From positions 180-64,179 of the forward strand of contig JBCCEK010000003.1 in NCBI GenBank assembly GCA_039030295.1: a stretch of 64,000 nucleotides of DNA. The letters are read 5' to 3'. Source of the DNA: Myxococcota bacterium (lineage in GTDB: Bacteria; Myxococcota_A; Polyangia; Polyangiales; Houyiibacteriaceae). Both the position numbers and the translations under genes were made by a program. How positions within the stretch are numbered: position 1 is the first letter of the stretch; every line of letters begins with the position of its first letter. Below the pieces are notes generated by a model. The model had not been told where the DNA came from, did not search any database, and saw only the letters and a list, made by a program, of their open reading frames with translations. Shown here one piece after another: positions 13,079 through 54,472 of this stretch.

Positions 13079-13197
13079 ACGGACCTCCAAACAACGAATC
13101 AGGGGTTCGACGAGCGTACACCCCACGGCCGGGTCGGCCAAGGGCGGAGATCGAGCGACCTTGCTCCAAGAGCCGCCCGTTGGGGCCGAACCGAGCT

Positions 13198-21146: not shown

Positions 21147-21229
21147 GCGCTCGAACCGAGGAGTACGTCGACCACGAAACCGTCTTCGTCCACGTGACGT
21201 CGGGGTTGTCCCCGCGCTATGACGACTTC

Positions 21230-37063: not shown

Positions 37064-39036
37064 GACAGTCTCCGTGGGCTATCAGGACCTGCGTCCGCCC
37101 GGTGTTTGAGCGCGAGCGCCATGACCGGGAAGTACTGCCGGTACAGGCGGTAGTTGAGGAGGGCGGTCTCGAAGAAGACCCCCACGAATTCGTCGTCTCT
37201 CCAGAGGCCTGATGACTGCTGGCGTCGTTCAAGCCACGCGGCGGCCCTCTCGATGGCGTTCCGATCCGGTTCGTTGGCTTCGATGAGGGTGATCATCGCC
37301 CACGCGGTTTGAACCACCGAACCTTGCGACGCTTGCACGTAGCCCCGGCTCGGGCCGCTCGTGTAGTCCTCGCCCCAAGCGCCGTCGCTTCTTTGGTGTG
37401 AGAGGAGCCAACGGCAAGCATCGCGAACGTGAGCGTCGGTAGCGGGAACACCGGCTGCCAGCAACCCTCGAACGCCAAACATCGTCCCGTAGATGAAGTG
37501 CACGCCCCACGCGGCGTCCCAAGTGCCGTCGTTGTTCTGGACGCGTCGAAGAAGGTCACCTGCACGCGTGATCGCAGCGTCGAGGCGCACGCGCATGAGG
37601 TCCGGGTAGTGTCTTCGCAGGTCGCTTAGCGCCATCAGGCAAGAGGCCGTGCATTCGACGTACGAGCGCTCGGTCATGCAGCGTCCGAACATCTCAGCGG
37701 GGTTCATCCATTCGAGTGGGAATCGCGTCTTTGCGGGTTCGTAGCTTCCAAAACCCCCGTCGTGGTTCTGGCAGCGAAGGATGAAGCGTGCTGCCCTGGC
37801 GGCGTTCTCCTTGCCGATCGCCTCGGGCCGTGTCCGCAAGAGCCCGATCAACGCCTCGGCCGTGCAGTCGCTCACTGGCCAGCCGTGGCCGACTTCGGAG
37901 AAGCACCAACCGCCATTCGGTTGGATCCGATGGGCCGCCTCGTAGTCGTACGCTGCGGCGCCCACCTGTTGTGAGGCGAGGAACGCGGCGCTCCGCGAGA
38001 CGGACTCGCTGCAATCGACGTGCGCGACTTCCGAGAGCGCTTGGAGCGCGAACGCCGTGTCCCAACACACGCTTCCGGCTCCTGCGACGCGCGAGCCCTC
38101 GTTCGCGTCCTCCCAGAACCAATCTTCGAATCGGTCCGTCGCGCGCTCGAGGTGCGGGTCAGCCGGGTTCTCCGCCCACAGTGCCAGCATGATCAGAAGC
38201 CCGTTCACAGGCGAAAGACCGAGGTAATCGCTTGCGCGAAGATGGGCGCGCATGTCGGCGAGGAGACGTGTCGTGAGCGTACGGCGAAGCCGGCGCGAGT
38301 GAACTCGGTCGTAGCCGCGTGCGACGGCGAACACAGCGCGAAGCGCCGGCCCTGCCGCAAAGGGGGCGTCCTCAGGTCGAATGTCGTTGCGGTAGCGGGC
38401 GAATGAAACCCGAGCGAAGCGCCCCCCGTAGAGCTCGTTCTCGAGCTCGTCGACCACCGGCCCTCGCTCGGCGACGAAGCGCCTGCCGAACAGGACCGCG
38501 AGCCCAAGGTAGATCTGACGGGTGTGGCAGTAGTAGTTCGAAGGGTGCAGGGGCACCCACTCCGGGAGCGCCCACGCCTCGGGAACGATCGGGTTCACCC
38601 CGTCCCAGTCGTAGAGCCCAAGGGTCGCCAACCAGACTTTTCCCCAAGTCGGGATCCGCTCCACACGCTCTGAGGCGAAGAGGCGTCGCGCGTCTTCGAG
38701 CCAAGGCGTTTCGGCCGGGGCGCCCAGAATCCGTGCCGCGACGTACACCAACGTGGTCACGTAGAGGTTCCCGTCATCGTACGGGTGGAGCCCCCATAAA
38801 CCCGAGTCGTGCCGAGTGACCCTGAACTGGGTCAGGAGTCCCGCTCGTCGCTCATCACCAAGCTCCTGCTTCATGATGTGCGACGCGATCGCGTACTGGG
38901 CCGCGAGCATGGGGTTCCATACGCACTCGCCTTCCCAGCTCCCGTCGTCCCTTTGGAGGCGGATCAGCGCGTCGAGGCCTCGATCCAGAGGCGTCTGTGC
39001 GTGAATCGAAAGATGGGTTGTTGCCGCGGCAGGCAT
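37060..39036 (-). CDS. Oxidosqualene cyclase (lanosterol/cycloartenol synthase type)
   Basis: Catalytic GWPVSDCTAEAL (the OSC-type VxDCTAE, not the hopene-cyclase DxDDTA). WDTAFALQAL, and repeated QW-type motifs (e.g. RLQRDDGSWEG, RCQNHDGGFG, RVQNNDGTW, SHQRSDGAWGE). Start ATG 39036 lies 5 nt after the HMGR stop. The Arg-rich 217-aa ORF extension was rejected. Confidence 0.9.
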   Translation of the reverse strand: MPAAATTHLSIHAQTPLDRGLDALIRLQRDDGSWEGECVWNPMLAAQYAIASHIMKQELGDERRAGLLTQFRVTRHDSGLWGLHPYDDGNLYVTTLVYVAARILGAPAETPWLEDARRLFASERVERIPTWGKVWLATLGLYDWDGVNPIVPEAWALPEWVPLHPSNYYCHTRQIYLGLAVLFGRRFVAERGPVVDELENELYGGRFARVSFARYRNDIRPEDAPFAAGPALRAVFAVARGYDRVHSRRLRRTLTTRLLADMRAHLRASDYLGLSPVNGLLIMLALWAENPADPHLERATDRFEDWFWEDANEGSRVAGAGSVCWDTAFALQALSEVAHVDCSESVSRSAAFLASQQVGAAAYDYEAAHRIQPNGGWCFSEVGHGWPVSDCTAEALIGLLRTRPEAIGKENAARAARFILRCQNHDGGFGSYEPAKTRFPLEWMNPAEMFGRCMTERSYVECTASCLMALSDLRRHYPDLMRVRLDAAITRAGDLLRRVQNNDGTWDAAWGVHFIYGTMFGVRGLLAAGVPATDAHVRDACRWLLSHQRSDGAWGEDYTSGPSRGYVQASQGSVVQTAWAMITLIEANEPDRNAIERAAAWLERRQQSSGLWRDDEFVGVFFETALLNYRLYRQYFPVMALALKHRADAGPDSPRRLS

Positions 39037-39041
39037 CGGTC

Positions 39042-40250
39042 CTACTCCGCGGCGGCGATCTCGAATCGCCGTGCGTGCAGATTCATGTGCCCGCTCTGGA
39101 TCCCCTCGGACGCCAGTGCGGAGAGCGCGCCGAGGTTCTGCGCCAACCCCACGGCCGCCATCACCATCGCGAGCTCGCCTGCAGTGTCGACGTTGAGGAG
39201 CTTTCGGAGCACGCGAAGGGCGGGCTGGACCGAAGTAGACCCCCCGACTGTCCCCACGGCCATCGGTACTTCGATCTCGCCGTGGAGCATCCCGTCGACT
39301 TGCCACCAGCGTGTCAACGGTTCGTAGCGGCCGTGGCGGGCGGCGTAGGCGTGCGCGCCTGCTTCGAGCCCGCGCCAGTCGTTCCCGGTGGCGACGCCGA
39401 CCGCGTCGATCCCGTTCATGACGCCCTTGTTGTGCGTTGCCGCGCGGTAGGGGTCGACCGCCGCGAACTGATAGGCTTCGACGACCCCATGGGCAACTTC
39501 GGCGCCCGAGTGTCCGCGGCGTTCGAGAAGTTCTTCTTGAATCGCGCAGCTCGCCCGCGCCATTCGCCGATCGGACAGGTTGCTCAGGATCCGAAGACGC
39601 ACCCGGCCTCCCGTCAGCTCTTCGATGATCGGCGCGACGCCCTCGGCCATGTCGTTGACCAGGTTCGCGCCCATGGCGTCGCGGCAATCGACGAGCAGGT
39701 GAACGACCAGCATCGGCGGGTCTGAGTCGAGAATCCGCACTTCGAGCGACTTCGCGCCCCCGCGGCGCGCCACCATGTTGGGGTGACGGTCATTCGCGAC
39801 TTGCAGGATCCGGTCTGCCTGTCGTTCGATGGCATTGCGTGCTCCGAACGGGTCTGGCACTTCGAGAACCTGCACTTGCGCGATCATCAAGGACTCGCTC
39901 GCGGTCGCGGAGAAGCCACCCGACTCGCGGATCACACGGGCCATGTTGCTGGCCGCGGCGACTACCGAGGGTTCTTCGACGACCATCGGTACCACGTAGT
40001 CGCGCCCGTTGACCTGGAAGTTCAGCCCGAGACCCACGGGCATCTTGAGAACGCCGACGCAGTTTTCGACCATCTTGTCGGCGATCTCGGCGTCGGTCGG
40101 GTCTTCGCACCCGAGCGCAGCGAGGTCTTCTGGGTCTAGAGAGAAACGTTCCGCGAGTTGGTGATGGCGACCCGGAAGGTCAAGCCGATAGAACCCGGGA
40201 ATGCGAGAGGAGGGACGAAGCGGTGCGCGATGGCTTGCTCGATCGGTCAT
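39042..40250 (-). CDS. mvaA: HMG-CoA reductase, class II
   Basis: Near-colinear with the Pseudomonas mevalonii enzyme as recalled: VPMVVEEPSVVAAAS, DAMGAN, AAVDPYRAATHNKGVMNGIDAV, GLAQNLGALSALASEGIQSGHM. ATGA overlap with the squalene synthase stop. Confidence 0.95.
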   Translation of the reverse strand: MTDRASHRAPLRPSSRIPGFYRLDLPGRHHQLAERFSLDPEDLAALGCEDPTDAEIADKMVENCVGVLKMPVGLGLNFQVNGRDYVVPMVVEEPSVVAAASNMARVIRESGGFSATASESLMIAQVQVLEVPDPFGARNAIERQADRILQVANDRHPNMVARRGGAKSLEVRILDSDPPMLVVHLLVDCRDAMGANLVNDMAEGVAPIIEELTGGRVRLRILSNLSDRRMARASCAIQEELLERRGHSGAEVAHGVVEAYQFAAVDPYRAATHNKGVMNGIDAVGVATGNDWRGLEAGAHAYAARHGRYEPLTRWWQVDGMLHGEIEVPMAVGTVGGSTSVQPALRVLRKLLNVDTAGELAMVMAAVGLAQNLGALSALASEGIQSGHMNLHARRFEIAAAE

Positions 40251-41323
40251 GCGGCATCCATGGTGCGGGGCCCGCCGTTGGTGACCGAGTTGGCCGCCAT
40301 CAGTCGAGCGACAGGAGTCCAGAGCGACTCGTAGTCCGAGCGGAGGAGGGCATCGTCTTGGTAGCTCGCGGCGCACCGAGCGATGACCTCTTCCACTTCC
40401 GCGCGACTCACTTTGACTTCTTGGCCATCGGTGAACATCGCGTCGTTCCCGTAGGCGAGGACGACAGTCCTCACGGCGAGCCACAGAGGCAACAAGCAGA
40501 ACAGTCGGATCTCTCGATGCTCCGCCGGGATCGTCAGTGCGTACTCGAGCGCGCTGTCCAGTTTGGTGCGCGCGAGGTGGAACATCGGAAAGACCGCTCG
40601 ATGTGCAGCCGCGAGCTGATCGGGATCGAGAAGATCACGACTCCGCAGTCCTTGCTTTCGGCAAAGGGACCGAGGCACGAACGACCATCCGCGCTGCATG
40701 TCGTCGGTGATGTCTTTCAGGATGTTGACGAGCTGAAGGCCCGTACCGAACGCCTCGGCGTGCTCGTACAGCGCGGCAGACAGCTCCGATTCGGGTGACG
40801 TACCCATCTCGGCGAGGAAGAGCTCGGTCAGCATGTGACCCACCGTGCCTGCGACGAAGTAACAGTACCGTTGCAGATCGTCGCTCGTTGTTGGAGCGAC
40901 CACACCGTCGGCGTCGGCGCGTCGATGGCTGTAGATCTCCATCCCATGAGCCATCTCATCGACCCAACGAACCACGGCGTCGCGCATCGGGGCCGGCACG
41001 GTATCGAGAACGGCGATCACGCGATCGATTCGGCGGCACAGTTCGATCTCTTCGACTGGGGACCCGGCGACATCGTTCCATTGATGCCCAAACTCCGACG
41101 GATCGACCGTTCCGGCGAGCACGCCGTGGAACGCGCGGTAGCGCACACTTCGCTCGTCGAGAGAGAACGAGGCGTTGTCTTCGACCGCATCGACGATTCG
41201 GCAGAGCAGGTATCCGCACGTCACGGCCCTCCTCAGGTCTCCAGGTAGCACCTCGATCGGTCGGGAGAATGTCCGGGACACTTCCCGGAGACTGCCTGCG
41301 CAGAAGTCCCATTCAGCTGACAT
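40247..41323 (-). CDS. Squalene synthase (farnesyl-diphosphate farnesyltransferase)
   Basis: SRTFSRPI, YLLCRIVDAVED (DxxED), and NILKDITDDMQRGWSFVP (second Asp-rich box). Single-enzyme SQS type. Confidence 0.9.
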   Translation of the reverse strand: MSAEWDFCAGSLREVSRTFSRPIEVLPGDLRRAVTCGYLLCRIVDAVEDNASFSLDERSVRYRAFHGVLAGTVDPSEFGHQWNDVAGSPVEEIELCRRIDRVIAVLDTVPAPMRDAVVRWVDEMAHGMEIYSHRRADADGVVAPTTSDDLQRYCYFVAGTVGHMLTELFLAEMGTSPESELSAALYEHAEAFGTGLQLVNILKDITDDMQRGWSFVPRSLCRKQGLRSRDLLDPDQLAAAHRAVFPMFHLARTKLDSALEYALTIPAEHREIRLFCLLPLWLAVRTVVLAYGNDAMFTDGQEVKVSRAEVEEVIARCAASYQDDALLRSDYESLWTPVARLMAANSVTNGGPRTMDAA

Positions 41324-42692
41324 GCTTTTCCTCCTCGACGAAGACCTCAGTTGGGTCGTCAGGGCGTGCCCAGGATTCGGGTGCTGCCCACGACACCGAC
41401 CGTTGCCGCATCAAACTCTGGCTCGGGTGAACGCTCGCCCACGGCCACCGAAGCCAGCCCGCGAGCTCGCGCGCCGTGGCGGCGTCAGAAAGAAGCACCC
41501 CGGCGCCGGCTCGCAGTGCAACGCGTGAGAAGGCCCGAACGAAATCGACTCGGCTCGTCGTAGCCGCGCCAAGCAGATCCATGGTTCGGTTGCGTTGCAT
41601 CGAGCTCGCGCGCCAGGTGCTGAAAATCGAGTCGCGAATCGCGATCGCCCCCACGTCCTCGCGAGCAAACGCCTGGTAAATCGCGTTCGAGAGGAGTTCC
41701 GGCACGTAGCTTTCGGCAGCCCGCTGTGCGGCATACGAGCTCAGCGAGCGGGCTCCGGCGAGGGCCTCTGCATCGAGGAGCGACATCGTGATGCCCATGG
41801 CGGTGAGCGGGTGGAACACCCCGGCCGCATCGCCGACGAGCGCCACCCCGCGGTCGGTTTGGTAGCGTCGCGGGCGGAACGTATTCGCGGCCCATCCGAT
41901 CGACGCATCTCCGGCGCCGCGACGGACGCCTTCGCGGAGCGCAGGTGGGAGCACCTCCGCGTACGACTTCCAGATCCAATCGTGGCTCTTCGTGCTTGCG
42001 CGCGCATCGTGCGGAACGTCGATGCACATCCGTACGGCGTTGTCCCCGATGCGATAGGCCAGCGCCGGCCCTGGTCCGCCCGTGATCACATGCCCGTACT
42101 CTTCGAAAGGAAGTTCGGTATCGCGCACGACCAGTCCGGCCATGACCGAGATCGAAACCTTCTCGCTGACTGCACCATCACCGAGGATCTTGCGCGCCGA
42201 GCGCCCCGTTGCGATGACGACGAGAGGTGCGTTGACCACGCGCGACTTAGACCTCTGAGTCAGCGTCACGAAGCGGCCCCGGACCTCGCTCGCGCGCACC
42301 CCTTCGAGATAGTCGACGCCTCTCGTCTGACTCACGCGCGCGCGCAGATGGGTCACCAAGGTTGCGTGTTCGCAGGAGAGACCGCGCTCGCCGCCGCCAT
42401 ACTCGAGGGTGATCGGACCGAGGCCATCGTTTGGAAACACGACGAAGCCGCGCCCGGTAGCGCCGTGCTCCAGTCCATCTAAAAGTTCGAGATTACGAAG
42501 GATTCTAGCCCCTTCGGGATGCACCCACTCCCCAGCGAAGCGCCGCGCTGCGTTCGGGTTCGACTCGACCAGGAGAACGCTCGCACCTCGCCGAGCGAAC
42601 GCCGCGGCGGTTGCGCAGCCCGCCGGTCCTGCACCGATAACCACGGTGTCGTACGCCGATCGAATGTCGCCCAAGTCGAACGTTGGCTGCAC
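41313..42692 (-). CDS. Squalene monooxygenase (epoxidase), FAD-dependent
   Basis: DTVVIGAGPAGCATA dinucleotide fold, GEWVHPEG, LVGDAAGVFHPLTAMGITMSLLDA. GTG start. Overlaps the SQS start by 11 nt. Confidence 0.85.
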   Translation of the reverse strand: MQPTFDLGDIRSAYDTVVIGAGPAGCATAAAFARRGASVLLVESNPNAARRFAGEWVHPEGARILRNLELLDGLEHGATGRGFVVFPNDGLGPITLEYGGGERGLSCEHATLVTHLRARVSQTRGVDYLEGVRASEVRGRFVTLTQRSKSRVVNAPLVVIATGRSARKILGDGAVSEKVSISVMAGLVVRDTELPFEEYGHVITGGPGPALAYRIGDNAVRMCIDVPHDARASTKSHDWIWKSYAEVLPPALREGVRRGAGDASIGWAANTFRPRRYQTDRGVALVGDAAGVFHPLTAMGITMSLLDAEALAGARSLSSYAAQRAAESYVPELLSNAIYQAFAREDVGAIAIRDSIFSTWRASSMQRNRTMDLLGAATTSRVDFVRAFSRVALRAGAGVLLSDAATARELAGWLRWPWASVHPSQSLMRQRSVSWAAPESWARPDDPTEVFVEEEKHVS

Positions 42693-43014: not shown

Positions 43015-44112
43015 ATGAGCGCGAACCCTGCAGGCATTGCATCCATTGGTCTTCAACTTCCCAGGCTCTTCATGCCGGTGACAGAGCTCGCTGATCTTCG
43101 TGGGGTCGATCCGAACAAGTTTACAAAGGGTTTAGGCTGCGGTGAGATCGCACTTTGCGATCCCGACGAAGACGCCGTCACCTTGGCCGTTGGCGCTGCG
43201 AAACGTGCCCTCTCGCGTTGGGACGGGCTTGCCGAAGACATCGGGCTCATCGTTGTGGGCACGGAGAGTGCGAAGGACATGAGCCGTCCGCTCAGTGCTT
43301 GGGTCGCCGAGGAGCTCGGCCTCTCTGGGGGGATCCGGTCCTACGAAGTGAAGCACGCGTGCTATGGCGGAACGCTCGCGTTACGCCAGGCGCTCGAGTG
43401 GAAATGGTCGGGCGCTTCTGCAGGCAAGGCGGCGCTCGTGATCGCTTCCGACGTCGCTTTGTACTCGCTTCAAGATCCGGGCGAGCCCACGCAGGGCGCC
43501 GGGGCGGTCGCGATGATCGTAGACGAACCCCTCGTCGCACGCATCGAGAACCGCTCCTATCCGTTCAGCAGCCCGGCGTTCGACTTCTGGCGCCCGGTCG
43601 GCGATCCGTTCCCGTCCGTTGAAGGGCAGCTTAGCCTCGACTGCTACAAGCGCGCGGTCGAGGAGTGTTACGGCGCGATGGTGGGCGACCGAGATGCGCG
43701 CGCTGTCCTCGGGGCCTTCGAGGCGATGGCGTTCCACGTCCCGTTCCCGAAGATGGTCAAGAAGGCGGTCCTCCACCTGGCCGAGCAGCTCGGGTGGACC
43801 GAAGCCGAGGGTGAGGCGCTTTACGCGGAGAAGGTCGACTCGACCATGGCGTGGAACCGTTCGGTTGGAAACGCCTACACGGCGAGCCTTTGGATCTCGG
43901 TTGCCGGCACGCTCTCGGGTATGGCGGAGGGCACCCGCATGACGGCGCTCTCCTACGGATCCGGCTACGGCGCCGAGCTCCTCGAGCTGGTCGCAGGCCC
44001 TGCTGCCTCGGCTGGTGCGTGGGCAACCGACATCGAGCAGGATCTCCGTCAGCGCCGCCTGGTCGACAAAGCGACTTATGAATCTCTTCGGGGTCATGCA
44101 CGCGCGAGCTGA
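43015..44112 (+). CDS. mvaS: HMG-CoA synthase
   Basis: VGTESAKDMSRP, and the catalytic-Cys context EVKHACYGGT. Start moved to ATG 43015, which has a strong SD. Confidence 0.9.
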   Translation: MSANPAGIASIGLQLPRLFMPVTELADLRGVDPNKFTKGLGCGEIALCDPDEDAVTLAVGAAKRALSRWDGLAEDIGLIVVGTESAKDMSRPLSAWVAEELGLSGGIRSYEVKHACYGGTLALRQALEWKWSGASAGKAALVIASDVALYSLQDPGEPTQGAGAVAMIVDEPLVARIENRSYPFSSPAFDFWRPVGDPFPSVEGQLSLDCYKRAVEECYGAMVGDRDARAVLGAFEAMAFHVPFPKMVKKAVLHLAEQLGWTEAEGEALYAEKVDSTMAWNRSVGNAYTASLWISVAGTLSGMAEGTRMTALSYGSGYGAELLELVAGPAASAGAWATDIEQDLRQRRLVDKATYESLRGHARAS

Positions 44113-45187
44113 GGGCCCTCGGGCGCCGTCGGATGCGGCCCTCGGTGCTCGCAAGGCCGACCACCTCGATCTCTGCGAAGGAGACGCGGTCGCATTCCGA
44201 TCGAAGACGACTCTCCTCGAGGGCGTCCGGTTTCTCCACCAGTCTCTCCCCGAGTTGGCGTCAAACGAAGTCTCCACGGAGACGCAACTCCTAGGGCGCA
44301 CGCTACGCGCTCCTATCGTGATCGCCGCGATGACCGGCGGACACGAGCGCGCGGCGTCGATCAATCGCGGGTTGGCGGCGATCGCGGAGCAGCGGGGAAT
44401 CGGCCTCGGGCTTGGAAGCCAGCGTGCCATGCAGCGGGACCCGTCGATGGAATGGACCTACAGTGTTCGCGAGTGGGCGCCGAACATCCTGCTCCTCGGG
44501 AACATTGGCGTCGTGCAGGCCCGCGAGACGCCGACACGCGACATCGAAGGGTTGGTACGCGACGTCGGGGCCGATGCGTTGTGTGTGCATCTGAATCCGG
44601 CGATGGAGCTCATTCAGTCCGATGGTGACCGCGACTTCCGCGGCTGTGTGGACGCATTGAAGCGACTCTCGAACGAGCTCTCGGTTCCGGTCGTGGCGAA
44701 GGAAACCGGGAACGGGCTCAGTCCCCAAACCATCGCAAAGCTCGTTGAGGCGGGTATTCGGTACGTCGATACGTCGGGTGCGGGTGGAACCTCGTGGGTC
44801 GGGGTCGAGACGCTGCGGGCCGACGGCGTTCGGCGCACGATCGGAGACAGCCTCTGGGACTGGGGCATCCCGACCGCTCCCTCGATCCACTATGCGCGTC
44901 AGGCCAACATGACCACGATCGCCACGGGCGGCGTCCGTTCGGGTCACGACGTCGCCCGCGCGTTGGCACTCGGGGCGTCGGCCGCAGGCATTGCGCGACC
45001 GGTGTTGCAGTCGCTCCAGCAAGGCGGCGAGGAGGGTGCACTCACGTTCATCGACGGTATCGTGGAGGAGCTCCGCGCAGTCATGCTGCTGACAGGCTCG
45101 GCGACCCCGGCGGCGCTTCGCGAGGCACCGAGAATCATCTCCGGTGAGCTCGATCGCTGGATGGGCGCGGCGGGCCCAACGCCATGA
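44096..45187 (+). CDS. fni: Isopentenyl-diphosphate delta-isomerase, type 2 (FMN-dependent)
   Basis: RKADHLDL, APIVIAAMTGG, VVAKETGNG, SGAGGTSW, GGVRSGHDVA. Start ATG 44096 overlaps the HMGS 3' end (alternative 44078). Confidence 0.9.
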   Translation: MHARAEGPRAPSDAALGARKADHLDLCEGDAVAFRSKTTLLEGVRFLHQSLPELASNEVSTETQLLGRTLRAPIVIAAMTGGHERAASINRGLAAIAEQRGIGLGLGSQRAMQRDPSMEWTYSVREWAPNILLLGNIGVVQARETPTRDIEGLVRDVGADALCVHLNPAMELIQSDGDRDFRGCVDALKRLSNELSVPVVAKETGNGLSPQTIAKLVEAGIRYVDTSGAGGTSWVGVETLRADGVRRTIGDSLWDWGIPTAPSIHYARQANMTTIATGGVRSGHDVARALALGASAAGIARPVLQSLQQGGEEGALTFIDGIVEELRAVMLLTGSATPAALREAPRIISGELDRWMGAAGPTP

Positions 45188-45909
45188 CGCTGCGGGCCAT
45201 CGTCGTCGACGGTGAGCCACCCGCCCGGCAGGAGCTATCGTTCCTCCTTGGGCAGTGCGACGGCGTCGAGGTCGTCGGTCGTGCGGCGGTGCCCGTCGAA
45301 GCGGAACGTCTTTGCGACGAGGTCGACCCACACGTGGCGTTCATCGATCTTCGCATGCCCGGAACCGACGGCCTCTCGTTGGCCAACGCGCTTCGTCGCC
45401 GCCATCTCGAGCTCGATGTCGTGATCGTCTCGGCCCACGATGAAGGGGCGATCCGTGGATTCGACCTTCAGATCGCGGACTACCTCCTCAAGCCGGTGAG
45501 CCTCGAGCGGCTGCGCCGCACACTCAGACACCTCGAAGACAGCCGATCCGACGCGCGCAGCCCGTTTCCGATCGAACGCTTCGCGGTACGTCGCAAGAAC
45601 GCCTATGTGGTCCTCGACCTGAAGGACGTGATCTACTTCGAGGCGCGCGACGACCTGGTTTGGGCGGTGACCGCTGACGATCGATTCGCCATCGATCGCA
45701 CGCTGGCGAGTCTGGCCGAGCACCTCGACGGCGAAGACTTTTTTCAGTCGCACCGAGGCTGCATCGTTCGGCTCGACAAGATCCGGGTGATCGAGCCTTG
45801 CGGCGCCCGCACCTTCAGGATCGTCGTCGATCACCCGGAGAGCCCCTCCGTGCCGCTCGCACGCGATCGGGTAGGCAAGCTGAGAGAACGAATTCCGTTC
45901 CTTCGCTAA
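45184..45909 (+). CDS. LytR/AlgR-family response regulator (REC + LytTR DNA-binding domain)
   Basis: REC domain with the acceptor context VAFIDLRMPGTDG. The C-terminal LytTR pattern is VVLDLKDVIYFEARDDLVWAVT...FFQSHRGCIVRLDKI. ATGA overlap with the fni stop. Confidence 0.9.
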   Translation: MTLRAIVVDGEPPARQELSFLLGQCDGVEVVGRAAVPVEAERLCDEVDPHVAFIDLRMPGTDGLSLANALRRRHLELDVVIVSAHDEGAIRGFDLQIADYLLKPVSLERLRRTLRHLEDSRSDARSPFPIERFAVRRKNAYVVLDLKDVIYFEARDDLVWAVTADDRFAIDRTLASLAEHLDGEDFFQSHRGCIVRLDKIRVIEPCGARTFRIVVDHPESPSVPLARDRVGKLRERIPFLR

Positions 45910-45918
45910 CGCACCGGC

Positions 45919-46950
45919 TCAGGCGGGTCGCTGGGCGACGAAGAAGTAGTTCGGCGTGAAGATTCCGAGCTCTCCGCCGGCGATCAACGACTCGGCGGCG
46001 TTCCCAAGCATCCGGCTGACTTCGGTCGAGCCCGGAGGCGCGATCCGAAGCCGCTCGAGGGTACGAATCGTCCGGCGTGCGATCGCACGACCGACACGCC
46101 CGCGCCGGATGGCGATCGGATTGCTGAGCTCGCCCTTGAGCGGCAAGTACCAAGGCGTCCGCGCATCGGACCTCGTTGCCGCGTCGTGGCTTTCGACGAT
46201 CTCGAAGCCGGCCTCGCGGAGTGCTTCGAGAACCTCTGGGACGGTCGCAATGTCGGGCAGGCTGTCGCCCTCTTCGATGCCCTTCTTGATCTTCTGGTGA
46301 TGCGCATTCGTGGGGTCGAAGGCGTCCGTCATGCACCACTCATACGCGGCGAACTTGCCACCCGGCTTGAGAGTCCTGAGGATCTGCTTGAACACGGCGA
46401 CCTTGTCCGGGGCATGGCACGTCGCCTCGAATGCGTACGCGGCGTCGTACGTCTCGTCAGCGACACCGAGGTTCATGAAATCGTCTTTGAACCCAGAGCA
46501 CTGGCCGGCGAGCCCGGCTTTCTGGTTGTACTGCTCGAGCTTGGTCAGCTGGTAGTCGTTGTTGTTCACGCCTTCGATCGTGGCACCCGAGAAGCGCGCG
46601 ATGGCCCGCATGGGCCCACCGACCCCGCAGCCCACGTCGAGGACCTTCATGCCCTCGTTGAGCCCCAGTCGGAGCGCAAAGAAATGCTCGGAGCGAGCCA
46701 AGGACGCATCGAACGATTCACCGTCGAAGCGGGGTGCGAAGTGAAAGGACTGGCCCCAGCCGTGCTCGTAGAAATCGGTGACCAGATCGTAGTAGTGATT
46801 GATCATGGTCGTGTAGTCGGCCTTGCGCGTCTCGACGTTCGCGCCTGACGACTCGTCGAAGAAACCGAGGTAGTCGCGAATGGCGCCGCGGACGGTGCTG
46901 CGCGTCCGCGCGTCGGAGTAGAATTGCGTTACGGCTTGCTCTTGAGTCAT
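45919..46950 (-). CDS. Sterol C-24 methyltransferase (ERG6/SMT family)
   Basis: YYDLVTDFYEHGWGQSFHFA (SMT region I), VLDVGCGVGGP (SAM site), YAFEATCHAP (region III), 343 aa. Confidence 0.9.
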   Translation of the reverse strand: MTQEQAVTQFYSDARTRSTVRGAIRDYLGFFDESSGANVETRKADYTTMINHYYDLVTDFYEHGWGQSFHFAPRFDGESFDASLARSEHFFALRLGLNEGMKVLDVGCGVGGPMRAIARFSGATIEGVNNNDYQLTKLEQYNQKAGLAGQCSGFKDDFMNLGVADETYDAAYAFEATCHAPDKVAVFKQILRTLKPGGKFAAYEWCMTDAFDPTNAHHQKIKKGIEEGDSLPDIATVPEVLEALREAGFEIVESHDAATRSDARTPWYLPLKGELSNPIAIRRGRVGRAIARRTIRTLERLRIAPPGSTEVSRMLGNAAESLIAGGELGIFTPNYFFVAQRPA

Positions 46951-47181
46951 CGATATCCCCTACAAACGAATGAAACTTTGCAGTCCGTTACCACACGCGA
47001 GGAGAGGGACAACGAGCGTTTGACCGATCTCGCGGGTCCCGGAGGTCCGAGATCCGGACCCCTTAACCGTTCGGCCCACTCCGAGGACCTCTCATTGCGG
47101 CGACTCGACCCTTGACCGCCGTTCAGCCGGCACCGCGGGCAGCCTCACTTTTTTCTTTTCTGTGTCAGTATCCGCCGTTCG

Positions 47182-48534
47182 ATGGCCGACGGCGAAACCA
47201 AACTCGGGACTTTCTCGACCCTTTCCATCGGGATCGGGGGCATGGTGGGTGGGGGGATCTTCGCGGTGACGGGCCTCACTGTCCAGGTCACCAAAGGGGC
47301 CGCCCCGATCGCGTTTCTGATCGCAGGCATCGTGGCACTCCTCACGAGCTACTCGTATCTCAAACTCACACTCCGATATCCCGGCGAGGGAGGCACCGTC
47401 TCGTTCCTCAACCAGGCTTTCGGAGGCGGAGTGCTGACCGGCTCGGCCAACATCTTGCTCCTCCTGAGCTACGTCGTGCTTCTGGCCGTGTACGCGTACG
47501 CGTTCGGGAGCTACGGCGCGAGCTTCTTTCCGAAAGAGGAGCGTACCCTGTGGCTTCATGTGCTGATCAGCGCGGTGATCATCGGGCTGGTGGTCATCAA
47601 CGTGTTCGGCACGCAGCTGGTGATTCGATCGGAGAACTTTTTCAACGTCGTCAAGATGCTGCTTCTTGCAGTGTTCGTGGTGTGGGGGCTTGCGACGCCG
47701 ATGACCTGGAACCGGCTGGCACCTGCCGAGTTCGTTTCGCCGGTCTCACTCGTTGCGGGCGCCATGCTGATCTTCTTGAACTACGAGGGCTTCGAGCTCA
47801 TCGCGAATGCGTCCAAGGACGTGGCCGATCCCAAACGTTCTCTTCCGATTGCATACATCGGGGGAGTCTTGTTGGTCATGGTGCTCTACGTGTTGATCGT
47901 TACCGTTGTCGTCGGGCATATGACGTTTGCCGACGTCGAGAAGACACGCGACTACGCGCTGTCGGTTGCGGCGGAGACGTTCATGGGACGCCCCGGCTAC
48001 GTGGGTATCGCCGTGGCCGCGCTCATGGCCACCAGCTCCGCGATCAACGCGACATTCTACAGCACGGGCCGACTGACTTACATCATCGCGAAGAGCGGTC
48101 AGCTACCGCGCGAGCTCGAGCGGGAGCTCCGAGGCGAGCACCTCGAGGGCACCATCATCACTGCGGGGTTGGCGTTGCTGATCGCGAACGCGATCCCCCT
48201 TGATGCGATCGCGACCATGGGCAGCGCAGGCTTTCTCTTGATCTTCGTCGCGGTGAACGTCGCCAACGTACGCCTCGCGAAGGAGACCAACAGTCGCGCC
48301 TGGCTGTCTGGAATCGCGGCCCTGACCACAACCGCGGCGCTCATCGTGTTGTGTATCGAGATAGGCTCCAAACCCGAGACTAGGAACCAGTTGTGGATCC
48401 TCGCGGCGATGGTTGCCGTCTCGTTCGGCGTCGAAATGGCCTACCGAAAGAGCACGGGTCGCCACATCTCTCTAGTATCTCGTGGTACTTCCGAGACCCA
48501 GGCGCCTGTCCTTGGTGCCGGCCCTGAAGACTGA
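47182..48534 (+). CDS. APC-superfamily amino acid permease
   Basis: 450 aa with about 12 TM segments. The N-terminal LSIGIGGMVGGGIF is typical of APC transporters. Confidence 0.85.
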   Translation: MADGETKLGTFSTLSIGIGGMVGGGIFAVTGLTVQVTKGAAPIAFLIAGIVALLTSYSYLKLTLRYPGEGGTVSFLNQAFGGGVLTGSANILLLLSYVVLLAVYAYAFGSYGASFFPKEERTLWLHVLISAVIIGLVVINVFGTQLVIRSENFFNVVKMLLLAVFVVWGLATPMTWNRLAPAEFVSPVSLVAGAMLIFLNYEGFELIANASKDVADPKRSLPIAYIGGVLLVMVLYVLIVTVVVGHMTFADVEKTRDYALSVAAETFMGRPGYVGIAVAALMATSSAINATFYSTGRLTYIIAKSGQLPRELERELRGEHLEGTIITAGLALLIANAIPLDAIATMGSAGFLLIFVAVNVANVRLAKETNSRAWLSGIAALTTTAALIVLCIEIGSKPETRNQLWILAAMVAVSFGVEMAYRKSTGRHISLVSRGTSETQAPVLGAGPED

Positions 48535-48545
48535 GGAGAAGAAGC

Positions 48546-50048
48546 GTGTTCAAGGACTACCCCGACTACGACGGCATCGGTCTCGCCGACCTCATGAAAC
48601 GGAAGGAAGTATCCCCCGCCGAAGTGATGGAGGCGGCGATCGCGCGCACGGAGGCGCTCAATCCCAAGTTGAACGCGATCGTCACACCCCTCTACGATCG
48701 CGCCAAGAGGGACGACCTGCCCGACGGCGCAGGCCCCCTCGCCAACGTCCCTTTCCTCTTGAAGGACGTGCACCACGCGCTCGAGGGAACCCCGATGAGC
48801 AACGGGAGTGCGCTTCAGCAGGGAGAAGTCTCGACGCGCAACGCGACGATCGTCGACCGTTGGCTTCGGGCCGGCCTGCGGGTTTTCGGAAAGACCAACA
48901 CGCCCGAGTACAAGCTGACGCCAACCACCAACCCCAAGATTTTTGGCGCCACCCGCAACCCTTGGGACCTCGAACGAACGCCTGGCGGCTCGAGTGGTGG
49001 ATCGGCGGCTGCGGTTGCGGCACGACTCGCACCGCTCGCTTCCGGCACGGACGAGGCTGGCTCGATCCGAACGCCATCGGCCAACTGCGGGGTGTTTGGG
49101 CTCAAACCTTCCCGCGGTCGAAACCCGATTGGCCCCGATTTTCGCTGGGAGCTCGGCGGCTGCTCGACTTCGCACGTCATCAGTCGAAGCGTCCGCGACA
49201 GTGCGGCCGCGCTCGACGCGACTCACGGGCCCGAACTTGGCGGACCGTATCATTGCCCCATCGGCGGGGGGTTCCTCGAAGCGCTGCAGGAGCCCCCGAG
49301 CACGCTCCGCGTGGCCGTCGATACCGGGACGAGTTACTTCGGACGTCCCATGGAGCCAAGCTGCGTGGCTGCGGTCGAACAGGCCGCCAAGATACTTGAA
49401 CGCCTGGGCCATCACGTCGAGCTCGTGCCACTTCCGTTTGATGAATCGGAGGCACTCTGGCTATCGGTCATCTTGATCGCGACGAGCTTCGCCGGGTTCG
49501 TCGACGAGCTCGTAGATGAGTACGACCTCGCGCGCGTGAAACGCGGTATCGAGCCGCTCAACTATTTCATCTGGAAAGCTGGGCACGCGGTTCCTTCGCA
49601 GATCACCGAGCGTGCCCGTCTTCAACGCCACGAGCTCGCTCGGTCGCTCGCCGAGTTCCACACCCGCTACGACGTTCTTGTCACATCGACGATGTGTTGC
49701 GCACCGAGGCTGATCGAGGAAACCGAGCCTTCGTCCGCCGACATCAAGCTCGCGACGGTCCTCGCGTCGGGGTTGCTACGGCCCCTGGGTGCCGTGCCCG
49801 GTGTTATCGAGCGCATCATCGATGCGCAGATCGACAGCTTGATCTCGCGCGTCCCGTATCGCACAGCGCTCGCGAGCGTCACGGGGCAGCCGGCGATGTC
49901 GGTTCCGCTTCATTGGACCGACGAGGGGCTTCCTGTTGGGGTTCAGTTTCTTGGGGGTTTCGGAAGCGAGCGCATGTTGCTTCAGTTGGCGTCCCAGCTC
50001 GAGTCGGCCCACCCGTGGGCGTCCAAGCGACCTTCGCATGCGTCCTGA
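48546..50048 (+). CDS. Amidase (amidase-signature family)
   Basis: [45 protein letters not shown] signature. GTG start. Confidence 0.9.
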
Positions 50049-50107
50049 GCCTCGCGTTCGTCCCCATCGGGGACCGTGCTAGGGTGCGCGCCCTCGGAGG
50101 ACCACGC

Positions 50108-51112
50108 ATGGGAACAAAACCGACTGGCCTACTCGCGTTCTGGCGAAACTACGATCGTAAGACCTACGTCAAGGCGGCGGTACTTGCCGATCGCCTCGGA
50201 TACGACTCGTTCTGGCTTCCCGAGGTCTGGGGCTACGAGTCGTTCACGCTTCTCACCGAGATCGCTTTGAAGACGAAGCGCATCAAGTTGGGCACCGGCA
50301 TCATCAACGTGTTCAGTCGGTCGCCCGCCCTGATCGCCATGCAGGCGGCCACCCTGGACGAGGTCAGCGGCGGAAGGTTCATTCTCGGGGTCGGCACGAG
50401 CGGCAAGCGCGTGATCGAAGGGCTTCACGGACGTGACTTCGAGAAACCACTCACGCAGACGCGAGACGTCATACGAGTCGTCAAGACGCTCCTTGACGGA
50501 CGGCCCATTTCGGAGTCCGACGCGAAGCTCCGGCACTACCGACCGTTCAAGCTCGACTTCGAGCCAAGGCGAAGAAAGATCCCGATCTATGTAGCGGCGC
50601 TTAAGCAGAAATCGGTCACGAGTATCGGGGAACTTGCCGACGGGTGGATGCCGATCTTCTGGCCGTACGATCGTCTCGAAGACGGACGGGCTTGGATCGC
50701 CGATGGGGCTGCCAAGTCTGGGCGAGATCCGGCGGAGATCGTGACCGCGCCCTTCACGACGGTCATCCCTGTGCCGGGCCGCGGCGCCTCGAAGAAGGCA
50801 CGCGAAATTATCGCGTTCTACATCGGCGGCATGGGTGAGTACTATAAGGAGCTGCTCACCGGCTTCGGCTACGGTGAGGAGTGTAACGAAGTCGAGCGGC
50901 TGTACCGTGACAAGTCGACTCGAGCGCAGGCTCTTGACGCGGTGACCGACGAGATGGTCGAACGACTGACGATCTCAGGCGATCCCCTCCACTGCCGCAA
51001 AGAGCTCGGGAGACGGCGCGGGCTTGGTCTGCAAGAGCCGATCATCAACTTACCGCCAGGCATCCCGTGGCCGGCGATGGCCGCCTTCATTACATCGCTT
51101 GCGCGGGCCTGA
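50108..51112 (+). CDS. Luciferase-like (LLM class) flavin/F420-dependent oxidoreductase
   Basis: [20 protein letters not shown]...[18 protein letters not shown]...[11 protein letters not shown]. Start moved to ATG 50108. Confidence 0.8.
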
Positions 51113-51149
51113 CGACTCCACAGCCGACAAGTTGGTGTATGCTGCACCC

Positions 51150-52088
51150 ATGTCTCCCGTCGAGGCGCCCTTCGCGAAGGGGTGGTACATGGTTTGCTGG
51201 AGCAACGACCTCGAGCGAGGCGCGACCTTGCCGCTCCGTTACTTCGCCAAGGACTTCGTGTTGTTCCGAGGGGAGAGTGGCCGCGCCACACTCCTCGACG
51301 CGCATTGCCCGCACCTCGGTGCGCACCTCGGTCACGGAGGCTGTGTCAAGGGTGACGATATCGTTTGCCCGTTTCATGCGTGGCGGTTCTCGCCCGAAGG
51401 TCGCTGTATCGAGGTCCCCTACGCGAGCCGCATTCCACCGAAAGCAGCCCTCCGGCAGTATCCGGTTTCGGAACACAGCGGGATGATCTTTGCCTACTTC
51501 GATGAAGAGGGGGTCGTCCCCGACTACGAAGTACCGCCGATTCACGAGCTGGACGATCCCAACTGGACTCCGCTCGAGATGAGTGAGATCCAGATCGCCA
51601 CCCAGCCGCGTGAGGTCATCGAGAACGTCGCGGACGTTGCGCACTTTGGCCCGGTTCACCACCAGACGATCGATGAGTTCGAGATGATCATCGATGGGCC
51701 AAGGGCCACTCAGAGAACGATTGGCAGAGGGGGGACGCTCGACGGGAGACCGATACCGGTCGAGTCGGTCGCGACCTATCACGGACCGGCCGTGCAATTC
51801 ACGAGGCTGATGTGGGCCTACGACATGGTCCTGGTGAACGCCCATGTGCCCATCGACCACGAGGCGCTCGTCCTTCGGTTCGGCGTGACGCTCCGCAAAC
51901 GAGCGGGCGAGAACGCGGGGCGTGACGTGATTCTGCAGCACGTCGCGGCAGCGCGCGACGGTTACTTCCAAGATGTCGCCATCTGGGAGCACAAGCGATG
52001 GCGCGATCGACCCACCCTCGTTGAGGGAGACGGGCCGATCGGCGAGATCCGGAAGTGGTACCGGTCATTTTTCGCTGAAGCATCTTGA
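51150..52088 (+). CDS. Rieske [2Fe-2S] non-haem-iron oxygenase (KshA/Neverland/SdmA-like single-component alpha subunit)
   Basis: Rieske CPHLGAHLGHG...CPFHAWRF. Mononuclear iron motif ENVADVAHFGPVHH (E-x3-D-x2-H-x4-H). Start moved to ATG 51150. Confidence 0.85.
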   Translation: MSPVEAPFAKGWYMVCWSNDLERGATLPLRYFAKDFVLFRGESGRATLLDAHCPHLGAHLGHGGCVKGDDIVCPFHAWRFSPEGRCIEVPYASRIPPKAALRQYPVSEHSGMIFAYFDEEGVVPDYEVPPIHELDDPNWTPLEMSEIQIATQPREVIENVADVAHFGPVHHQTIDEFEMIIDGPRATQRTIGRGGTLDGRPIPVESVATYHGPAVQFTRLMWAYDMVLVNAHVPIDHEALVLRFGVTLRKRAGENAGRDVILQHVAAARDGYFQDVAIWEHKRWRDRPTLVEGDGPIGEIRKWYRSFFAEAS

Positions 52089-52113
52089 GCGCCACACGAC
52101 GGCGGACGCGCGG

Positions 52114-53478
52114 TCAGCGTGGGATGAGCCGCATCGGAAGTCCATCGACAGGCTTGCTGAACGGGAAGTACTGGAGCTTGGCGGGGTAGTACCCACGCTT
52201 GGCGAACTCGAGCCGGTACCCTCGAAGCATCTCGGCGAACGTCTGCATGAAGAGAAGACGCGCGAAGTGCATCCCGATGCATTTGTGTGCGCCGCCGCCG
52301 AACGGAATCCACATGAAGTTGTGTTTTCGGTGCTCGTTGCGGTCCTCGCCGAACCGTGTGTGGTCGAATTCGTCGGGGCGCTCCCAAAAGCCTTCTAGGC
52401 GCTGGATGTAGATCCCGGGTACGCACACCATCGTATCGGCTGGGATTCGGACGCCTCCGAACTCGCATTCACGAATGGTGCGACGAAGAAATAGCGAAAC
52501 GGGCGGGTGCAGCCGGAGTGTTTCGTAGAACACGCCCACAACCTCTTTCATCTCGTGAAAGAACGCCTCGTAGCTCGGTGGCTGCTCAGTACCGGCGAAG
52601 TCGCGGTAAAGCGTCTCTTGAAGGCGGAAGTCGTGGCACAGGTAGTACGCTGCCATCGTTGCGGCGCTGGTCGTCGTGTCGTGCGCCGCAAGCATCAAGA
52701 AAACCATATGATCCGCGATGTCCTCGTCTTCGTAGTACTGGCCCTCCTCGGTCTTCGAACGGCAGAAGTGGGCGAACACGTCTTCATCGTCGGAGGTGCG
52801 TTTGCGCGCGATCAGATCCATGAAGAACCGCTTGAGCGTGCGACGGCCGCGAAGGCCTCGATGGTAAGGAAGGCCGGGGATGGGCAACCGGACCACCCCG
52901 AGCGCACCCTCCATCATGTCCGTGAAAGCGGTGTTCACGAGTCGGATGGTCTTGTCTGAGTCTTCAACCCAGCAGAACACTTCGAACGCGATGTCCAGCA
53001 ACAGGAGCTTGACCTCGTCGTAGAATAGAAACTCGTCACGTTCCGCCCATTGCGAGACTCGCCGCTCTACGATGCGCTGAATGCGGGACAGGTACCCACG
53101 CATCGCATCGGGCTTGAATGACGTCTGCATGATGCCGCGGTGCAGGCGATGCTCCTCGAAGTCGCGCATCACGAGGCCGCCTTCGAAGAACTCCGCCATC
53201 ACCGACTCCCAGCCCTTCTTGATCGAGAAGTTCTTCTCTCGATCGAGAAGCACCCGCTGGGCGTGATCGGGGTGGATCAGAAGCGTGCACTTGTTGCCGG
53301 TGATCGAGATTCGGCTCACCGGCCCGTACTTCCGGAAGTGTCGGTCGAACATGGCGTTCGGGTCGCGGACCATCTCGAGCGTCTTGCCGACGAGGGGGAG
53401 CCCGTACTCCCCAGGCAAGTGCCTGAGGTCGCGATTCGCTGGCCGCTGGTCGTACGGGATCGGTTCGGCGTGTTCCAT
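52114..53478 (-). CDS. Cytochrome P450 (not CYP51-like)
   Basis: Haem loop FGGGAHKCIGMHFA, ETLRLHPP (ExxR), and I-helix LMLAAHDTTTS. ATG 53478 preferred over GTG 53487. Confidence 0.9.
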   Translation of the reverse strand: MEHAEPIPYDQRPANRDLRHLPGEYGLPLVGKTLEMVRDPNAMFDRHFRKYGPVSRISITGNKCTLLIHPDHAQRVLLDREKNFSIKKGWESVMAEFFEGGLVMRDFEEHRLHRGIMQTSFKPDAMRGYLSRIQRIVERRVSQWAERDEFLFYDEVKLLLLDIAFEVFCWVEDSDKTIRLVNTAFTDMMEGALGVVRLPIPGLPYHRGLRGRRTLKRFFMDLIARKRTSDDEDVFAHFCRSKTEEGQYYEDEDIADHMVFLMLAAHDTTTSAATMAAYYLCHDFRLQETLYRDFAGTEQPPSYEAFFHEMKEVVGVFYETLRLHPPVSLFLRRTIRECEFGGVRIPADTMVCVPGIYIQRLEGFWERPDEFDHTRFGEDRNEHRKHNFMWIPFGGGAHKCIGMHFARLLFMQTFAEMLRGYRLEFAKRGYYPAKLQYFPFSKPVDGLPMRLIPR

Positions 53479-53593: not shown

Positions 53594-54472
53594 TCAGGCG
53601 GCGTCGCCCGAGTCCGGGCCAGGGTCCTGCGGAGTGCTCTTGGCCGCATCTTGGATGGTCGCGGCGAGCGCCCGCACCTCCCTGTCACTCAGGGTCTCTG
53701 ATTGAAGTCGTTCGGCGGTGCGCCGGATCGCTGCGAACCGCTGGTCGATGGTTTCGTAGATCGCGCCGTTCTTGGGTGGGAGCGTCAGCCGACCCGTGAC
53801 CTCACGGAGCCTGGACTCGGCTTGTCGTCGGTTGCGCTCGGCTTCCTCGTGCAGCTGAACTGCGCCCTTGAAGTTCTCGAGAAGCTCGGCTTGCTCCCGC
53901 AGGCTCGAATCCAAATGCCGCGTAAGTACGTCCACGCTTACGATCGCCACACCGCCGAACACGGCGAAGAGCGCCGTCACTCGCAACCAATCGACCAAGT
54001 CTGTCGGGTCGTAAAAGTGCGCTGTCTCTATCGACACGATCCCGCTCGAGAGGCAGACCCCTGCGGTCAGCAGCGCGAGCAGGTTGAACCCGAAGGCCGT
54101 CCAGGTCGCGCGTCGTCCAAAGAGAACCGAGGCGAGAAGGTTCTGCGCGACCAAGATCAGGATCGGGGCGGGGAGGTAGCCCGCGGCGAAGAGACCAAAG
54201 ACCCCCCCAACGTAGAGCAGCCCGAGAAAGCCGGCGGCGCGCACCGCGTACGACAGGGGCCGGGCGAGGAGTAGGATCGTTAGTCCTGCGTAGACGACGA
54301 GAGCGGCACCCGCGACCGTCCATGCCTCCATGTCGATCGCGTCCACCAAGGTCCGCACAAACGCGAGCCCGCCCACCGCAACAGACATCAGAAGAGTCAC
54401 GTTGAGGATGCGAAGCCGAATGGCGTTGGCTTCGTTTGCGATATTGCGTTGCTTTGGCGCGTCAGCTTCCAA
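53594..54472 (-). CDS. Hypothetical polytopic membrane protein with a C-terminal coiled-coil
   Basis: 292 aa. About six hydrophobic segments are followed by a charged helical tail (LREQAELLENFKGAVQLHEEAERNRRQAESRLRE). No kinase motifs seen. Confidence 0.5.
   Translation of the reverse strand: MEADAPKQRNIANEANAIRLRILNVTLLMSVAVGGLAFVRTLVDAIDMEAWTVAGAALVVYAGLTILLLARPLSYAVRAAGFLGLLYVGGVFGLFAAGYLPAPILILVAQNLLASVLFGRRATWTAFGFNLLALLTAGVCLSSGIVSIETAHFYDPTDLVDWLRVTALFAVFGGVAIVSVDVLTRHLDSSLREQAELLENFKGAVQLHEEAERNRRQAESRLREVTGRLTLPPKNGAIYETIDQRFAAIRRTAERLQSETLSDREVRALAATIQDAAKSTPQDPGPDSGDAA

Follow-up and report, generated by a model that had tools for sequence, protein, structure and literature searches.

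A predicted sterol C-24 methyltransferase gene linked to a mevalonate-sterol cluster in a Polyangiales-like Myxococcota lineage

Does a bacterium of the Myxococcota encode its own enzyme for alkylating the sterol side chain, and which alkyl groups would this enzyme make? These questions are raised by a gene at positions 45919-46950 (minus strand) of the stretch of DNA analysed here, 64 kb of contig JBCCEK010000003.1 from a Myxococcota metagenome-assembled genome (MAG; GCA_039030295.1), referred to below as the window. In an original prediction, the 343-residue product was read as a sterol C-24 methyltransferase (SMT) encoded beside a sterol module. Family domains, similarity to yeast Erg6 and genomic linkage support this interpretation. 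Judged from its sequence, the product is a bona fide member of the SMT/Erg6 family. We consider it likely, with a probability of roughly 0.8, that the gene encodes a functional S-adenosylmethionine (SAM)-dependent sterol C-24 methyltransferase resident in a Myxococcota (Polyangiales-like) lineage, an enzyme whose activity and substrate we infer.

Family membership and integrity of the gene

The open reading frame (ORF) begins with ATG and ends in TGA (TCA on the plus strand) at 45919-45921. The motif GGGGA at 46957-46961 (minus strand), 6 nt upstream of the ATG, is a putative Shine-Dalgarno-like element. The exact same protein sequence is held at NCBI (MEM7433672.1) under the name 'MAG: methyltransferase domain-containing protein [Myxococcota bacterium]'. 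This name is generic because no NCBIfam model scored above its cut-off when the protein was scanned. In Pfam, a class I SAM-dependent methyltransferase domain (Methyltransf_11, E 1.4e-15) was found ahead of Sterol_MT_C (PF08498; E 1.4e-20, 73.6 bits for a 21.7-bit cut-off), the latter spanning residues 281-342 and thus positions 4-65 of the 66 in the profile. A HMMER search over all 1.84 billion 50%-cluster representatives matched 465 clusters at E≤1e-30. The second-best representative was the rice 'cycloartenol-C-24-methyltransferase 1-like' protein (XP_015629017.1 cluster; 52% identity, E 1.5e-104); because of this rank, the SMT was fairly described as 'eukaryote-type' in the original prediction.

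The protein is 45% identical to yeast Erg6 over 337 residues (BLASTP, E 7e-101); this match and that to Sterol_MT_C lie well outside what chance would give. The reference used for Erg6 numbering was exactly NP_013706.1, which agrees with 28 published residue numbers. All four motifs first quoted for the product are present, starting with YYDLVTDFYE at residue 53. Region I, YEHGWGQSFHF at 61-71, keeps Y81, G84, W85, G86, F89, H90 and F91 (Erg6 numbering). Region II, LDVGCGVGGP at 104-113, conforms to the motif DxGxGxxGP and keeps D125, G127, G129, G132 and P133. In Region III, FEATCHAP starts at residue 174 and Erg6 E195 corresponds to E175; in Region IV, Erg6 G217 corresponds to G197. The window SMT thus shares with Erg6 Regions I-III, the 25 conserved residues considered below, Y81 and D249; it differs in having H for Y at position 83. 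Erg6 also has a ~20-residue N-terminal extension, a C-terminal tail and, around its residue 300, an insertion of 7 residues, all absent from the window SMT. Among named relatives that lie outside the bacterial clade, plant SMT1, represented by the rice cluster, is the nearest. At 348 aa it is about as long as the window SMT and is likewise devoid of the fungal-type insertions, whereas the window gene is bacterial, intronless and placed in an operon-rich context.

An AF2 model built from 73 homologs was confident, with a pLDDT of 93.2 and a pTM of 0.91. The PDB contains no SMT structure, and the closest PDB sequences are those of MitM and similar small-molecule methyltransferases. The solved folds nearest to the model were also small-molecule class I methyltransferases (AtmM, MitM, RebM, SpnF, TleD and geranyl-diphosphate C-methyltransferase; TMq 0.55-0.67). 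Two of them, TleD and geranyl-diphosphate C-methyltransferase, are olefin C-methyltransferases, a resemblance of the modelled fold that would suit the reaction of an SMT.

The gene is intact and under purifying selection. The closest syntenic ortholog gave a dN/dS ratio (Nei-Gojobori) of 0.06 (pN 0.10, pS 0.69), a value that is approximate because dS is near saturation; three more distant relatives gave 0.15-0.20. In a sibling MAG (L084; GCA_039028875.1, JBCCHE010000005.1), the SMT is identical at 334 of 343 residues (97%), for DNA that is collinear over 21 kb at 86% nucleotide identity. These ratios, together with the higher identity of protein than of DNA, indicate strong functional constraint. 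No second SMT was found within the 64-kb window; a class I methyltransferase at 21194-22024 was rejected as a candidate, as it is unrelated (26% identical) and without Sterol_MT_C. Antisense or out-of-frame ORFs of 200-800 aa over real genes, for instance the 220-aa frame at 46186-46848 (plus strand) inside the SMT gene, were regarded as the usual artefacts of high-G+C DNA, and those scanned had no family matches.

Conserved linkage to a mevalonate-sterol cluster

The SMT gene converges on that of a LytTR-type response regulator (Response_reg and LytTR domains; 45184-45909, plus strand). As first described, their stop codons lie 9 bp apart: the TAA of the regulator occupies 45907-45909 and the spacer, cgcaccggc, 45910-45918. 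The corresponding spacer measures 35 nt in the sibling MAG and 13 nt in another syntenic contig (L081). No inverted repeat near the two stops spans them. The regulator was also said to close the mevalonate operon. This was confirmed, since its start overlaps the stop of IDI2 by 4 nt (45184-45187), making it the last gene of a unit formed with HMG-CoA synthase (HMGS; 43015-44112; HMG_CoA_synt_N/C; start refined) and the type 2, FMN-dependent isopentenyl-diphosphate isomerase (IDI2; 44096-45187; FMN_dh; ATG refined from the gene length in L084), all on the plus strand. The regulator is an orphan without an adjacent histidine kinase; it is translationally coupled to IDI2, and its position is kept in all five syntenic contigs described below.

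The divergent unit, on the minus strand, comprises squalene epoxidase/monooxygenase (SQMO; 41313-42692; Pfam SE, E 2e-22), squalene synthase (SQS; 40247-41323; SQS_PSY), HMG-CoA reductase (HMGR; 39042-40250; HMG-CoA_red, E 1e-108; start refined), oxidosqualene cyclase (OSC; 37060-39036; start refined) and a polyprenyl (farnesyl) diphosphate synthase (FPPS; 35945-37063; polyprenyl_synt). It ends, at 33055-35943 with unrefined starts, with mevalonate kinase, diphosphomevalonate decarboxylase and a second GHMP kinase, presumed to be phosphomevalonate kinase (GHMP_kinases_N/C, MVD-like_N, MDD_C). The cyclase is of the oxidosqualene and not the hopene type: it matched human lanosterol synthase (1w6k) at E 3.5e-120 versus 2.4e-46 for SHC, and TIGR03463 at E 4.5e-201. 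It is predicted to make a delta-24 protosterol. The original statement that a complete protosterol pathway is linked to the SMT therefore holds at the level of Pfam domains, and only at that level.

These adjacent operons would supply the substrate of the SMT. The mevalonate pathway, FPP synthase, squalene synthase, squalene epoxidase and OSC would lead to a delta-24 protosterol of the lanosterol or cycloartenol type. The SMT would then move the methyl group of SAM to C-24 of the delta-24(25) double bond, on the protosterol or a later intermediate. Following the general SMT mechanism, which is assumed to apply here, a hydride shift and proton loss would resolve the carbocation into 24-methylene or 24-methyl (C28-type) side chains. 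The SMT may be co-regulated with the sterol cluster.

When one genome per bacterial species was scanned, at least 547 stretches were found to encode an SMT relative. The best 80 of these all come from MAGs, mostly of Myxococcota; others among them, at ~50% identity, belong to Chloroflexota, Alpha- and Gammaproteobacteria, Planctomycetota, Rokubacteria, Latescibacterota, Gemmatimonadota and Binatia. In 27 of these 80 loci, tblastn with the neighbour genes of the window detected an OSC gene no more than 10 kb from the SMT. The arrangement SMT / response regulator-IDI2-HMGS / SQMO-SQS-HMGR-OSC-FPPS recurs in four other MAG contigs (L013, L018/L083, L081 and L084), giving five with the window, and the LytTR regulator keeps its position in each of the four. 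The SMT of L081 is 85% identical to that of the window.

When 141 sequences were arranged in a neighbour-joining (NJ) tree with 100 bootstraps, the SMT of the window fell within a clade of Myxococcota MAGs (97-100% bootstrap) that is divided into two subclades. At least one MAG holds one copy from each subclade (L011 and L018). Backbone support at the deeper nodes was 0-11%. A placement relative to fungal, plant and sponge-symbiont SMTs had been suggested as a check in the original prediction. The NJ tree supports the Myxococcota-MAG clade, and neither a bacterial nor a eukaryotic deep origin of the gene; the published maximum-likelihood SMT tree is likewise poorly supported at depth (PMC10070321). 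Altogether, these analyses establish the family membership of the SMT, its integrity, its purifying selection and its conserved linkage to the sterol cluster.

Predicted product and competing explanations

Since the tested bacterial SMTs are published as JGI gene IDs, residue rules were used in place of sequence comparison with them. In the work of Brown & Welander (bioRxiv 10.64898/2025.12.19.695621), the functional SMTs tested all share 25 conserved residues, G249 (Erg6 numbering) is necessary for propylation and C30 products, and Phe at position 81 or 83 increases C30 output. Alignment with Erg6 revealed that all 25 residues are identical in the window SMT, and that its determinant positions are Y81 (its own Y61), H83 (H63) and D249 (D229). 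The determinants of 24-isopropyl formation are absent, with no G249 and no Phe at 81 or 83. On these grounds, the enzyme is predicted to perform at least one methylation; Y81, H83 and D249 argue against the formation of 24-isopropyl sterols, and a second methylation to 24-ethyl is possible. The propylating SMTs, from a Chlamydiae drinking-water MAG and an Aplysina aerophoba symbiont, belong to the same family and have the same conserved core, whereas the window SMT has D for their G249 and Y/H for Phe at 81/83. This pattern extends to its relatives: in a survey of 113 full-length sequences at ≥56% identity, position 249 was D in 99, N in 14 and G in none. Y81 was found in 111 of them and His83, the commonest state, in 75. 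All 25 functional residues are kept by only 75 of the 113 close relatives.

Several observations weigh against the SMT being an active C-24 methyltransferase fed by this cluster. In two studies, eleven of the bacterial SMT homologs tested converted neither desmosterol nor 24-methylenecholesterol, and four of the 11 carry every conserved residue (bioRxiv 10.64898/2025.12.19.695621), so that identity at all 25 positions is not sufficient for activity. The His at position 83 is atypical when compared with the Y of yeast. Plant SMT1 has F at this position and plant SMT2 has W. No sigma-70-like promoter was detected in the 231-bp divergent intergenic region upstream of the SMT, and the 9-nt convergent gap contains no terminator-like hairpin, such hits being confined to coding sequence; for a 64% G+C organism of this phylum, neither negative is informative. 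No recognisable CYP51, SdmA or SdmB is encoded in the window. Finally, the positions of the OSC that correspond to human T381/C449/V453 carry A/H/V, a mixed set. The specificity pattern is reportedly T/C/V for lanosterol synthase and Y/H/I for cycloartenol synthase; A/H/V matches neither, and the assignment of the cyclase to one or the other type was abandoned. The product of either type carries the delta-24 bond required by an SMT.

A bifunctional SMT, performing two sequential methylations and yielding 24-ethyl (C29, stigmastane-type) besides 24-methyl sterols, would refine the interpretation as a C-24 methyltransferase and not contradict it. We regard this as possible, on the unlikely side. 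Ethylation is known in several bacterial SMTs, including SMT '1 of 2' of a Sandaracinus MAG (PMC10070321; bioRxiv 10.64898/2025.12.19.695621), and desmosterol is also methylated by every ethylating SMT (PMC10070321). The residue at position 249 can be read both ways. D249 is compatible with ethylation, because the Aplysina symbiont SMT still yields C29 sterols when G249 is changed to D, whereas the same change abolishes both C29 and C30 products in the Chlamydiae SMT (Brown & Welander). Retention of Y81 speaks against a second step, as extra methylation in yeast is enabled by Y81F (Brown & Welander). In some related MAGs, two paralogous SMTs occur (L011 and L018 in one MAG), which suggests that the steps are divided between enzymes. 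The Q of Region I (GWGQSFHF), shared with plant SMT2, counts in favour of the bifunctional enzyme.

It is improbable that the protein, instead of being the functional C-24 methyltransferase that we favour, is an SMT-family member inactive on the usual test sterols, which would either need an unusual substrate or have lost its activity. The 11 inactive homologs and the unusual H83 would fit such a protein. They are countered by the low dN/dS of 0.06-0.20, the protein identity of 97% to the sibling MAG at 86% DNA identity, the retention of all 25 residues and the conserved linkage to OSC.

We give very little credit to a methylation elsewhere, either at C-4, as by the STRM enzymes of nematodes and dinoflagellates, at C-26, or on a non-sterol triterpenoid. 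STRM-type enzymes methylate 3-keto steroids at C-4 and, as members of the SMT family, share its conserved regions (PMC9136925), and C-26 SMTs have been postulated, none being discovered yet. In PMC9136925, whose motifs appear only as figures, no sequence signature separating C-4 from C-24 SMTs was found. The nearest named or characterised relatives of the window SMT, rice SMT1-like (52%) and Erg6 (45%), are nevertheless C-24 enzymes, and C-24 is the position alkylated by all active bacterial SMTs tested so far (PMC10070321).

Eukaryotic contamination, mis-assembly or mis-binning, which the 52% identity to plant SMT1 and the MAG source of the contig could suggest, is effectively refuted, and contamination or a recent eukaryotic import is not credible: the ORF is intronless and sits with 9-bp spacing among bacterial operons (LytTR regulator, LysR, EF-G, type 2 IDI), its GC3 of 0.82 equals that of EF-G in the window and shows a native codon composition, independent assemblies of at least four other MAGs gave the same 21-kb arrangement, and the SMT nests in the Myxococcota-MAG clade (97-100% NJ bootstrap).

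Neighbouring genes, related cassettes and significance

Candidates for sterol-nucleus processing in the window were considered and found no support. The P450 at 52114-53478 was rejected as CYP51: its best PDB match is CYP120 (2e-36, versus 8e-25 for bacterial CYP51), it has no GQHTS I-helix signature and it matches no CYP51 NCBIfam model. The Rieske protein at 51150-52088 scored 70 bits for the 600-bit cut-off of the SdmA model NF052579, and the 3beta-HSD-like protein at 4358-5437 scored 63 bits for 600 as SdmB. As no CYP51, SdmA or SdmB was recognised, nothing in the window shows further processing of the nucleus. An ERG2/Sigma-1-receptor-type sterol C-8 isomerase homolog lies at 56642-57304 (plus strand; ERG2_Sigma1R, E 5e-52), 9.7 kb from the SMT. 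It belongs to the family of fungal-type sterol C-8 isomerases, here encoded by a bacterium, and occupies the same relative place in L084. The predicted content of the window is thus a protosterol pathway with side-chain methylation and possibly C-8 isomerisation, nuclear demethylation not being documented there.

Between the SMT and the ERG2 homolog, the 47182-53478 block encodes an amino-acid permease, an amidase, a luciferase-like monooxygenase, the KshA-like Rieske oxygenase (E 1.6e-54 to KshA) and the P450 of the CYP120/CYP51 clan. This block is kept in L081 and L084 (in L081, the Rieske protein is 79% and the P450 80% identical); it might serve in sterol modification or have no relation to sterols. 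A protein with a MASE11 membrane-sensor domain is encoded at 53594-54472. Further away, at 11309-13141 (minus strand), a 610-aa protein combines WS_DGAT_cat and WS_DGAT_C with a C-terminal SCP-2 sterol-transfer domain and is a candidate steryl-ester or wax-ester synthase. The 3beta-HSD/epimerase-family protein at 4358-5437 (plus strand), with weak similarity to SdmB and HpnA far under the cut-offs, adjoins a DUF2855 protein at 3236-4342 (minus strand); a link of these two to sterols or hopanoids is possible and unsupported. A carotenoid-cleavage oxygenase of the RPE65 family (27188-28639, plus strand; E 8.6e-120) lies ~5 kb upstream of the isoprenoid cluster.

Related SMTs also occur in other contexts. 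Non-syntenic copies of the window's subclade are found in an SMT-Rieske-FAD_binding_4 cassette (L082), and no homologs of these Rieske and FAD_binding_4 partners were detected within the window. A Rieske/KshA_C oxygenase directly follows the SMT on the same strand in L082 (10001-13830), L001-L010, L015-L019, L021 and L023; this SMT-adjacent Rieske protein is not supported as SdmA (53 bits for the 600-bit NF052579 cut-off). In L082, the next gene encodes a 552-aa FAD_binding_4 protein, the family to which DHCR24/DWF1 belongs. The three genes may form a side-chain modification cassette. A different, near-identical SMT / OSC-SQMO-P450-...-Rieske cassette was observed in L057, L058, L061, L062, L065, L067-L071, L074, L075 and L077, with the SMT at ~10001 and OSC, SQMO, P450 and Rieske genes downstream on the opposite strand. 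These MAGs are labelled Dehalococcoidia, Chloroflexota, Alpha- and Gammaproteobacteria and Arenicellales, and several of the isolate names look sponge-derived. The shared cassette suggests a cross-phylum horizontal transfer of a sterol-plus-SMT cluster.

Bacterial SMTs have precedents. Brown, Olagunju, Giner & Welander (2023, Nat Commun 14:1859; PMC10070321) assayed 24 bacterial SMTs from metagenomes in vitro, of which 20 alkylate C-24 and three form 24-isopropyl sterols. Many of the tested SMTs are encoded within clusters of sterol genes, among them two functional enzymes of a marine Sandaracinus MAG; the locus had accordingly been called noteworthy rather than unprecedented, a judgement that stands. 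In the view of the same authors, de novo production of 24-alkyl sterols is most to be expected of myxobacteria, although no isolate had confirmed it. Sandaracinus amylolyticus carries sterol and isoprenoid-precursor genes in one cluster, and the 2025 survey of Myxococcota sterol synthesis makes no mention of SMTs (PMC12004948). No later paper was found that reports an SMT or 24-alkyl sterols from an isolated myxobacterium.

Like the Sandaracinus MAG enzymes, the window SMT is a Myxococcota protein with Methyltransf_11 and Sterol_MT_C, encoded beside OSC and sterol genes in an uncultured host. It belongs to a different lineage, the retrievable Sandaracinus-labelled loci being ~50-55% identical. 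It is the single SMT in 64 kb, whereas the Sandaracinus MAG has two adjacent SMTs, and it is linked to the full mevalonate pathway and a LytTR regulator. The physiological substrate of Erg6 in yeast is zymosterol.

As a tentative conjecture, to which we give somewhat less than even credence, the Polyangiales-like clade would make 24-alkylated sterols de novo from acetyl-CoA, via one contiguous, conserved supercluster of ~24 kb ending in the LytTR regulator. Since the cluster has no linked CYP51 or SdmAB, the protosterol itself may be the substrate of the SMT, and the products would resemble eburicol or 24-methylenecycloartanol. Paralogous SMT-Rieske-FAD_binding_4 cassettes of related MAGs would then complete saturated 24-alkyl side chains. 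If true, this would provide the evidence that Brown et al. 2023 asked for, namely that bacteria alkylate sterol side chains in the cell.

The picture of 2023 is unchanged, as the gene class, its presence in myxobacterial MAGs and its clustering with OSC were all published already. New here are the residue-based product prediction, the purifying selection, the supercluster in five MAG contigs including the window, the two-subclade structure and the absence of recognisable CYP51 and SdmAB from the window. The gene can be used as an expression candidate, as a guide to MAG lineages for cultivation and to correct the generic NCBI annotation. Steranes of C28-C30 serve as fossil markers specific to eukaryotes (algae, fungi, sponges), and the bacterial SMTs reported in 2023 already made this use of methylated sterols less straightforward. 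The implication for C28/C29 sterane biomarkers is the same as that of the Sandaracinus MAG SMTs: the locus contributes a clade of Myxococcota in which a mevalonate-sterol-SMT supercluster is conserved and for which methyl, possibly ethyl and not isopropyl side chains are predicted. Each additional bacterial lineage with an intact, selectively maintained SMT tied to a complete sterol pathway widens the possible non-eukaryotic sources of steranes.

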